A stretch of 64,000 bases of DNA. It comes from Candidatus Nanoarchaeia archaeon. GTDB taxonomy: Bacteria > Patescibacteriota > Microgenomatia > Woykebacterales > RBG-16-39-9b. Each line of letters begins with the position of its first letter. Position 1 is the first letter of the stretch. A program made the position numbers and the translations under genes. Below, one piece after another: positions 61,382-62,112 of the stretch. Location: NCBI GenBank assembly GCA_036514715.1, contig DATBWR010000001.1, forward strand, positions 8,644 through 72,643. The letters run 5' to 3'. The notes beneath the pieces were generated by a model. It was not told the DNA's origin and searched no databases. It was given only the letters and a program-made list of their open reading frames with translations.

Positions 61382-61455
61382 GTGTAAGAAAATAGTTAAC
61401 TGCCAGATCTAGATATTGGTATACGCTATAGACTTGAGTATGTTAGGGTTAAGAT

Positions 61456-62112
61456 GTGATTTGGACTTCTCGATTAGCATACGTCGTCGGTTTAATAGCT
61501 ACAGATGGAAGTTTATCTAAGGATAAGAGGCATATTATTCTTACCTCCAAAGATTTGGAGCAAATTCAGACCTTCGCAAAACTTCTGAATTTGAAAAATA
61601 AAATTGGTCTTAAGGGTAGTTCGTATAACAAAGAGAAGAAGTATTACTTTATCCAGTTTGGAAATGTTAGGTTGTACAGGTTCCTAGAAAGTATCGGTTT
61701 GACGCCTAATAAAACAAAATCTATTTCTACTCTTTTAATACCGGATAGTTATTTTCCAGACTTCCTTAGAGGAAGTCTGGACGGCGATGGTTATACATAT
61801 TCCTACTGGGATCGAAGATGGAAAAACAGCTTCTTGTTATATCTAGGATTTATTTCAGCAAGTAAAGCACATCTTGAATGGATTAGTAGCAAAATCCAGA
61901 AACTTTATGGATTGAAAGGGAATATTAATTTCATGGGGAGATCTACGTATAGACTTATTTTTGCAAAAAGAGCCTCTCTCGAACTTATTAAAATGCTTTA
62001 CTATCAAGATAATTTACCTTGTTTAGGGAGAAAGAGGTTAAAAATTTTGCGTTCGTTAGATATAATATTGCACAATGCCGAGGTGGGGAAACTGGTAGAC
62101 CCGCTACCTTGA
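61456..62112 (+). CDS. double-motif LAGLIDADG homing endonuclease
   Basis: Motif 1 LAYVVGLIATDGS and motif 2 FLRGSLDGDGYTY. Its 3' end overlaps tRNA-Leu(GAG) by 36 nt. Confidence 0.75.
   Translation: MIWTSRLAYVVGLIATDGSLSKDKRHIILTSKDLEQIQTFAKLLNLKNKIGLKGSSYNKEKKYYFIQFGNVRLYRFLESIGLTPNKTKSISTLLIPDSYFPDFLRGSLDGDGYTYSYWDRRWKNSFLLYLGFISASKAHLEWISSKIQKLYGLKGNINFMGRSTYRLIFAKRASLELIKMLYYQDNLPCLGRKRLKILRSLDIILHNAEVGKLVDPLP

Follow-up and report, generated by a model that had tools for sequence, protein, structure and literature searches.

This study concerns a LAGLIDADG endonuclease gene that lies between two leucine tRNA genes in a stretch of 64,000 nucleotides (nt), hereafter the window, taken from contig DATBWR010000001.1 of an assembly deposited as Candidatus Nanoarchaeia archaeon (GCA_036514715.1) and placed by the Genome Taxonomy Database in the bacterial Patescibacteriota (Microgenomatia, Woykebacterales). 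The left neighbour, tRNA-Leu(CAG), occupies positions 61296-61381 of the plus strand, and the right-hand partner, tRNA-Leu(GAG), follows on the same strand at 62077-62163 with an encoded CCA end. Both are intact, as a preliminary description made from the sequence alone had read them: they are called by ARAGORN and score 52.1 and 50.0 bits, respectively, with the Rfam tRNA model (gathering score 29). The gap between them (61382-62076, 695 nt) contains one long open reading frame (ORF), which runs on the plus strand from a GTG at 61456 to a TGA at 62112, within tRNA-Leu(GAG), and encodes 218 amino acids. Its start had previously been placed at 61382; in-frame stop codons lie upstream of the GTG, and it is here, too, that the homologs begin, with M-x-W. 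Introns are the usual carriers of LAGLIDADG genes. The present gene is free-standing, as had been proposed, and an Rfam search of positions 60000-64000 returned only tRNAs and noise, with no match to a group I intron (Intron_gpI or related) even at E≤10.

The assignment of the ORF to the two-motif LAGLIDADG proteins is borne out by Pfam (LAGLIDADG_3, PF14528, E=1.3e-6), by the best sequence match in the PDB (I-Tsp061I, E=1e-8) and by 485 homologs in the protein database. The closest of these besides the ORF itself is 70% identical, and the best 120 are 57-70% identical, about 218 residues long and derived, where the source is named, from Levybacteria, Woesebacteria, Daviesbacteria and other Patescibacteria. 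Lower-scoring relatives amount to 787 clusters at E≤1e-10. Motif 1 (LAYVVGLIATDG) spans residues 7-18 (61474-61509, plus strand) with D17 at 61504-61506, and motif 2 (FLRGSLDGDG) spans residues 103-112 (61762-61791, plus strand) with D111 at 61786-61788. The catalytic residue of a LAGLIDADG motif is the Asp just before the Gly, for example D20 of I-CreI. The GLIATDG variant of motif 1, which had been singled out as unusual, turns out to be the family norm, with Ala replacing the first, non-catalytic Asp, TDG as the family consensus and D17 untouched. Both D17 and D111 are invariant in 39 homologs and 100% conserved in 120; the loss of both catalytic residues that would have marked a relic is thus not seen.

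An AlphaFold2 model built from the 39 homologs (mean predicted local distance difference test score, pLDDT, 90.5; predicted template modelling score 0.86) shows the duplicated alpha-beta-beta-alpha-beta-beta-alpha fold with a beta-sheet DNA saddle, the two LAGLIDADG motifs forming helices 5-17 and 97-109. In a Foldseek comparison with the PDB, I-Tsp061I came first (E=2.4e-12, template modelling score 0.68-0.72), followed by an intein endonuclease, I-AniI, WhiA, I-DmoI, I-SceI and the bI3 maturase; 131 entries matched at E≤0.001, and all 50 of the matches listed are LAGLIDADG-fold proteins (homing endonucleases, meganucleases, the intein endonuclease, WhiA and the bI3 maturase). The four strands of the DNA saddle are the best conserved secondary-structure elements longer than three residues (0.79-0.88), and the ratio of nonsynonymous to synonymous divergence (dN/dS) is 0.076, 0.047 and 0.075 in the three homolog pairs with finite dS, calculated over 195 codons. 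A chance ORF and a degenerate relic are both ruled out by homology, structure and dN/dS. The protein is thus a complete, two-domain, monomeric two-motif LAGLIDADG protein in which neither catalytic Asp has been lost and on which strong purifying selection acts. Given a dN/dS of 0.05-0.08 and the invariance of the catalytic residues it looks active, and by its fold and active site it belongs to the monomeric LAGLIDADG endonucleases, of which site-specific cleavage of a DNA target of about 20 base pairs would be expected. NCBIfam holds no family model and assigns no function to it, the WhiA-type Pfam domain (PF14527) reaches only 15 bits where 23.2 would be required (E=0.028), and neither a helix-turn-helix nor any other additional domain is present. 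Among the PHROGs, a family of phage endonucleases comes nearest (E=4.7e-30), with the relatives found in phage genomes only 25-29% identical. A role in anti-phage defence was considered and rejected, the single PADLOC match being to a generic homing-endonuclease model.

A scan of one genome per species (185,579 species genomes) recovered 337 relatives of the endonuclease, and the loci of the best 80 were compared; according to their record titles these belong to Microgenomates, Parcubacteria, Berkelbacteria and Saccharibacteria, groups of the candidate phyla radiation (CPR). Downstream sequence was present for 79 loci, 78 of them distinct, and in 79/79 a contiguous and complete tRNA-Leu gene follows directly downstream, with anticodon GAG in 75, AAG in two and CAG in two. 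The ORF stops inside the tRNA in 46/79 loci and before it in 33/79, its end falling between 39 nt before and 44 nt inside the tRNA in 77/79. The exceptions are L015, counted among the 33, which ends 165 nt early, and L031, counted among the 46, which reads through the entire tRNA. Among the 78 distinct loci only L015 has an interrupted reading frame. Its single in-frame TAG (3454-3456), at a position of Q or G in the homologs, is the sole defect of the ORF and reflects a sequencing error or else an inactivation of very recent date. In L031 (2995-3717) the TGA is lost, so that the ORF passes the whole tRNA gene and ends beyond it, and both L031 and L050 have AAG rather than GAG as the downstream anticodon. 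The upstream context is not conserved: Microgenomates-type loci (L005, L009-L017 and others) typically have tRNA-Leu(CAG), which is absent from Parcubacteria-type loci, where unrelated genes with terminators are found instead; tRNA-Leu(CAG) does not belong to the conserved unit. Since the same gene-plus-tRNA arrangement recurs at 79/79 assessable loci across the CPR, and in about 90 CPR loci altogether, the endonuclease gene is an old, site-specific resident at tRNA-Leu(GAG) and not a recent insertion.

The intimacy of this association is evident at the 3′ end of the gene. As had been noticed before, the ORF runs through the TATAAT upstream of tRNA-Leu(GAG) and through the first 36 nt of the tRNA itself (62077-62112, plus strand), which provide 11 codons (AEVGKLVDPLP) and the TGA, the latter corresponding to U33-G34-A35 of the anticodon loop. 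These last residues (210-218) have a pLDDT below 50 and are the sole disordered part of the model, and among the database homologs the C-terminal tails are different tRNA 5′ ends translated in different frames. As no stop codon precedes the tRNA, and as the tail is disordered and variable, it is a by-product of read-through. A comparable effect is seen at the other end of some database entries (P0054, P0079, P0114, P0151, P0239), whose long N-terminal extensions resemble translated tRNA (e.g., MAEVAELVDAHV..., WNWQTG...) and are apparently annotation artefacts, with the ORF start called inside the upstream tRNA-Leu gene. For annotation this means that the 11-residue tail, like some of the long N-terminal extensions, is translated tRNA sequence.

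The promoter of tRNA-Leu(GAG) likewise lies inside the coding sequence. It extends over 62038-62066 of the plus strand, with a -35 box TTAAAA (62038-62043), a 17-nt spacer and a -10 box TATAAT (62061-62066) 10 nt before the tRNA +1; with 10/12 consensus matches it is the sole plus-strand promoter-like site that a promoter scan reported in 61150-62250. The -35 box falls within the codons for LKI and the -10 box within GAT ATA ATA (D-I-I). Across Microgenomates-type loci TATAAT is found at -16 to -11 from the tRNA start, with TTTAAAAT about 17 nt further upstream, and the boxes coincide with a conserved peptide, K-I-x-x-x-L-x-I-I. Synonymous sites were compared in the 28 loci that have x-I-I at a distance of 13-18 nt from the tRNA. 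While x can be G, D, A, S, C or K, its codon ends in T in 27/28 loci; the first Ile codon is ATA in 27/28, as against 37.5% ATA among the Ile codons elsewhere in the same ORFs. This conservation of T-ATA-AT at synonymous sites supports a constraint at the nucleotide level, and hence a working -10 box. Parcubacteria-type loci present a different picture, with the ORF ending before the tRNA and the embedded TATAAT mostly absent, and the gene is still conserved there. Many Parcubacteria-type loci (L040, L041, L046, L049, L052, L065, L073, L079) have (C)TTGAC or TTGAT only about 8-14 nt before tRNA-Leu(GAG). This is too close to the tRNA start for a -35 box; the sequence could serve as a processing signal or be what is left of a further CTTGAG-like piece.

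A second tRNA-related sequence precedes the gene. The motif TTGGTATACGCTATAGACTTGAG (61416-61438, plus strand) resembles the region from the D-loop to the anticodon (GAG) in the 5′ half of tRNA-Leu(GAG); it is unique within the window at up to three mismatches, with none expected by chance. Aligned to positions 15-38 of the tRNA-Leu(GAG) of L061 it matches at 22/23 positions with one gap, giving a score of 19 where shuffled sequences reach a mean of 10.5 and a maximum of 14. A motif of the form (A)TTGGTAtACGCTATAnaCTTGAG(G) is found upstream of the ORF in 51/78 loci and is more conserved across phyla than the adjacent functional tRNA. The spacing from GGTAnAC to TTGAG is 9 nt in 44/51 copies of the motif as opposed to 8 nt in 75/75 functional tRNAs, so that the copies share a derived 1-nt insertion and descend from one ancestral pseudo-half travelling with the gene. 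The motif looks like a pseudo-tRNA footprint inherited with the cassette. It ends at the anticodon, where bacterial tRNA introns sit (bioRxiv 10.1101/2020.01.27.920355).

Comparative geometry suggests that the promoter of the endonuclease gene overlaps this motif. The candidate promoter at 61416-61444 of the plus strand consists of TTGGTA (-35, 61416-61421), a 17-nt spacer and TATGTT (-10, 61439-61444), the latter 11 nt before the GTG start, and it falls below the threshold of the consensus scan. Three registers can be seen among the relatives: TTGGTA, 18 nt and TATAAT in 10 loci, TATACT inside the motif followed by ATG 6 nt later in about 10 loci, and TTGAGc, 17 nt and TATAAT in several. The start codon is preceded, at a distance of 6-7 nt, by the end of a TAnnnT hexamer in 36/49 motif loci, a geometry of leaderless mRNA. 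That the motif is kept while the register of the promoter shifts suggests a further constraint, which may be binding by the endonuclease protein itself. Another shared upstream element, approximately TTGACTTTCGGTAAAA..TT.GGTAAT.TTAAT, is found in place of the tRNA-like motif in L016, L019, L030, L031, L034 and L050 and is probably an alternative promoter region. The converse proposition, that the 3′ end of the ORF is a remnant of a tRNA 3′ half, was dropped, the resemblance of GGTTAAAAATT to a T-arm being too weak and having no Rfam support.

To look for sites lacking the gene, metagenomes were scanned with a pattern taken from two parts of this type of tRNA, its anticodon loop and its variable arm, so that the upstream sequence had no influence on the outcome. 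Among the 16 loci obtained the gene is present on 11 contigs, representing 9 distinct loci (L086 and L090 are one sequence, as possibly are L095 and L098). Three loci are empty (L085, L087, L091), and L100, which gave no upstream match, probably is as well, so that at least 3, probably 4, of 13 distinct loci lack the gene; L089 is the same region as L085, cut at the contig edge. Empty alleles of the kind that the preliminary description had proposed to look for thus exist. The two tRNA-Leu genes are only 25 nt apart in L087 and 17 nt apart in L091, and L087 is syntenic with the occupied L095 and L012, the nucleotide identity being 67% across 2.2 kb on the upstream side and 80% on the downstream side. 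One conserved site is thus polymorphic for presence and absence of the gene, which is a signature of homing. The empty sites L085, L087 and L100 have TATAAT at the same distance from the tRNA as the occupied ones.

Further hints of movement come from the remains of tRNA in front of the gene. In four loci the pseudo-tRNA 5′ ends are longer (scores 17-20; null maximum 13), and in three of these, L013, L063 and L076 (scores 17-18), the pseudo 5′ end is of a genuine tRNA-Leu type that differs from the adjacent functional tRNA, which suggests recombination between lineages. A sub-lineage is situated before tRNA-Leu(CAG) (L034, L083), and one metagenome-assembled genome contains both a CAG-linked and a GAG-linked copy (L034 and L043). 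These two are 46% identical, and a recent duplication was rejected in favour of old paralogous sub-lineages at the CAG and GAG tRNAs. The G+C content (GC) of the ORF is below that of its flanks in 78/79 loci. The nonsense codon of L015 and the phage affiliation of the nearest PHROG count on the side of mobility as well. Viral contigs scanned for the same tRNA pattern yielded nothing.

We tentatively suggest, at somewhat short of an even chance, that the locus harbours a long-lived, free-standing homing-endonuclease cassette specific for tRNA-Leu(GAG), mostly inherited vertically and occasionally lost or transferred. Its order is a piece derived from a tRNA-Leu(GAG) 5′ half, overlapping the candidate endonuclease promoter, then the endonuclease ORF, then an intact tRNA-Leu(GAG). 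The ancestral element may have entered a tRNA-Leu(GAG) gene near the anticodon loop, the host being kept viable by a working tRNA copy with its own promoter that the element supplied, rather than by RNA splicing. The enzyme would still recognise conserved DNA, either the tRNA-like motif or the tRNA-Leu genes, and repair of the double-strand break would occasionally copy the whole cassette into related genomes. The gene may be repressed by its own product, bound at the tRNA-like motif over the promoter, and the RNase P cut at the tRNA 5′ end would strip the stop codon from the mRNA and in this way hold expression down. A more specific and more doubtful version is that an intron-less homing endonuclease colonised an essential single-copy tRNA gene as a mobile unit bringing a replacement tRNA-Leu(GAG), or its 5′ half and promoter, with the displaced 5′ half of the resident gene becoming the promoter/operator of the endonuclease, a substitute for splicing at the DNA level across the CPR. 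An intron-borne ancestor at the anticodon loop is plausible: the cassette may have arisen from an intron in the remote past, though it is not one now.

Several observations weigh against an element that moves by homing. Within clades the divergence of the endonuclease is about that of the flanking genes (75% identity in L005/L011, where the flanks have 66-78%, and 87% in L041/L052, where they have 81-94%), and its dN/dS is as low as that of housekeeping genes. Synonymous sites are saturated or nearly so between relatives (dS 0.6 to >2). No recent transfer was found among the loci compared: for the closest cross-lineage pair, L028/L029 (83-89% identical), dS is 1.25, and the similarity reflects constraint, so that recent horizontal transfer was rejected for this pair. 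For 23/24 named Microgenomates and Parcubacteria sequences the nearest named neighbour belongs to the same group, and the GC of the ORF tracks that of its flanks and host (r=0.77). The correlation between endonuclease identity and tRNA identity is weak (r about 0.27), which should not be seen as decisive given how short the tRNA is. The cassette has accordingly been inherited mostly vertically.

The cleavage target poses a further difficulty. The proposal that a flanking tRNA-Leu gene is the target gains support for the past, in that the fragment derived from a tRNA-Leu(GAG) 5′ half upstream of the gene points to a historical target, and could not be upheld for a target inside the functional tRNA. 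The tRNA-Leu(GAG) sequences of the empty L087 and the occupied L092 are identical, and those of the empty L091 and the occupied L039 differ at one position of the acceptor stem. Because empty and occupied alleles share the same tRNA, a target wholly inside it would lead to the genome of the carrier being cut as well; protection of the carrier through sequence differences in the target, as expected of intronless homing, is not seen if the target is in the tRNA. A target across the insertion point upstream of the tRNA did not survive either, as the DNA just upstream is variable, AT-rich and unconserved among the empty sites, and a variable target there fits poorly with the strongly conserved strands of the DNA saddle. 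No cleavage target can be named, and for this reason we hold the selfish-element reading only tentatively and leave a considerable, if smaller, place to a domesticated function. The points raised against homing fit a gene of benefit to the host equally well.

Domestication is the main rival, one we consider unlikely rather than remote. It states that a former homing endonuclease has been kept for a host function tied to tRNA-Leu(GAG) and is inherited vertically and sometimes lost; the protein could be a DNA-binding regulator of the tRNA and of its own promoter, acting through the motif, or an RNA-binding, maturase-like factor. The low dN/dS, the divergence in step with flanking genes, the deep congruence with host groups and the tracking of host GC all favour it, as do the missing immunity polymorphism between the tRNAs of empty and occupied alleles, the overlap of the upstream motif with the promoter in several registers, suggestive of a protein-binding site, and the integrity of the ORF in all but one of the distinct loci, the exception being a single nonsense codon. 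However, both catalytic Asp residues are invariant, while known domesticated relatives such as WhiA and the bI3 maturase have lost their catalytic acidic residues, and the WhiA-type domain stays below its cut-off with no helix-turn-helix domain. The gene is moreover absent from at least three, probably four, related sites of this tRNA type and is therefore dispensable, its relatives number only 337 among the 185,579 species genomes, the chimeric, foreign pseudo-tRNA ends point to horizontal events, and neither an NCBIfam family nor a known function is available for it.

Much less probable is an entrenched relic, that is, an inactive endonuclease whose DNA is retained since the promoter of an essential single-copy tRNA lies in its 3′ end. 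The nucleotide-level constraint on the -35 and -10 boxes within the coding sequence and the retention of TATAAT at the same distance in the empty sites L085, L087 and L100 speak for such an entrenchment, which would however protect the last ~40 nt only. It leaves unexplained the intact ORF in all but one of 78 loci, the dN/dS over 195 codons, the invariant catalytic residues and the conservation of the Parcubacteria-type gene, which ends before the tRNA and mostly lacks the embedded TATAAT. Least credible of all is a recent mobile insertion into this tRNA cluster, as the preliminary description had suggested, or a tRNA-Leu gene with a group I intron that still functions: although the GC of the ORF (35%, as against 43% for the window), the usual carriage of LAGLIDADG genes by introns and the end of the upstream piece at the anticodon are in its favour, no ribozyme was detected at E≤10 in the region searched, the gap is taken up almost wholly by the ORF and followed by a complete tRNA, identity to the closest other homolog is only 70%, and a recent arrival is contradicted by an arrangement common to 79/79 loci across CPR groups, by synonymous sites that are saturated between relatives, by divergence in step with the flanks and by GC that follows the host.

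The tentatively favoured homing cassette shares traits with several known systems without matching any of them. I-Tsp061I (PDB 2DCH) and I-DmoI are similar in size (about 200 residues) and in having two LAGLIDADG helices with one catalytic acidic residue each. They are however archaeal, monomeric enzymes encoded in rRNA introns that interrupt the target, with an identity of only 22%, whereas the present gene is found in bacteria of the CPR, where it stands free next to a tRNA gene without interrupting anything. Closer in host are the LAGLIDADG enzymes of CPR rRNA insertions, which are predominantly single-domain homodimers in group-I-like insertions of 16S and 23S rRNA genes; one of them, I-ShaI, cuts its insertion site, and tRNA loci are not mentioned in that work (PMC11270868). 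The I-ShaI type and the present family have in common the bacterial radiation, the superfamily and the formation of site-specific lineages at conserved RNA genes, and differ in that the tRNA-Leu family is two-domain and not in an intron.

The free-standing phage endonucleases SegB (from a tRNA gene cluster), SegF and SegG of T4 are GIY-YIG enzymes that spread by intronless homing, with immunity through target polymorphism. Similar features are the placement of a free-standing endonuclease gene amid a tRNA cluster and the proposed spread by break repair with co-conversion of neighbouring markers, here the tRNA; unlike in T4, no target polymorphism distinguishes empty from occupied alleles. Phage and integrative and conjugative element integrases that target tRNA genes are tyrosine or serine recombinases and duplicate the tRNA 3′ end. 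With these the present cassette would share a tRNA gene that is occupied and restored by a copy on the element, with a displaced partial tRNA at one end, but its enzyme is a LAGLIDADG nuclease, the displaced piece is a 5′ half and the element measures only ~0.7 kb. I-TevI, a GIY-YIG enzyme of a phage intron, represses itself through an operator that mimics its homing site, and the overlap of a target-like sequence, here the tRNA-like motif, with the endonuclease's own candidate promoter is reminiscent of this. WhiA (PDB 3HYI; Foldseek E=1.1e-8) lacks the catalytic acidic residues and has a C-terminal helix-turn-helix domain. As a two-domain LAGLIDADG scaffold in bacterial chromosomes it is a model for domestication, from which the present protein differs in keeping both Asp residues and having no extra domain. 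A LAGLIDADG gene at tRNA-Leu in the CPR was not described in the full-text literature searched, an absence of evidence that extends to that literature only.

The tRNA cluster around the cassette shows additional variability. In the window a NUDIX hydrolase gene (62176-62592, Pfam E=3.9e-13) lies between tRNA-Leu(GAG) and tRNA-Val(TAC), while in many relatives (L005, L011, L015, L016, L022) tRNA-Val follows 1-20 nt after tRNA-Leu(GAG). The NUDIX gene, whose GC of 35-36% is likewise below the window mean of 42.6%, may have been inserted locally into the cluster. A weak Rfam match to YrlA (Y RNA-like) at 62705-62782 (26.8 bits, gathering score 69, E=0.0099) reaches from the last part of tRNA-Val into the first part of tRNA-Phe and most likely reflects likeness to tRNA and not a real Y RNA. 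In L002 (1161-2840, minus strand) and L003 (847-2526, minus strand) the tRNA-Leu(GAG) downstream of the endonuclease is overlapped by, or contains the end of, a gene for a 559-residue large serine recombinase (Resolvase, Recombinase, Zn_ribbon_recom), which suggests that a second, unrelated element has integrated at the 3′ side of the same tRNA. L009 (identical to L004) encodes a small GIY-YIG domain protein of 84 residues (5265-5519) by tRNA-Val(TAC) just downstream of the cassette, so that this tRNA cluster may contain another nuclease gene.

Homing endonucleases persist in conserved genes by means of self-splicing introns or inteins. The family described here occupies a different niche, the 5′ edge of tRNA-Leu(GAG), as opposed to introns, inteins or the rRNA insertions of the CPR, and it would have found another route to harmlessness, in that the promoter of the tRNA is supplied within its own codons and the cassette apparently came with, or rebuilt, a complete tRNA. 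It provides a natural example of dual coding, in which the same bases serve both as codons and as promoter boxes, and, as a compact (~205 residues) monomeric LAGLIDADG family with probably conserved specificity, could be of interest for meganuclease engineering. If domestication should prove true, the protein would be a new case of domestication within the LAGLIDADG group, linked to a single tRNA gene; as a homing cassette, it would offer a testable system for the very long persistence of selfish nucleases in small genomes.

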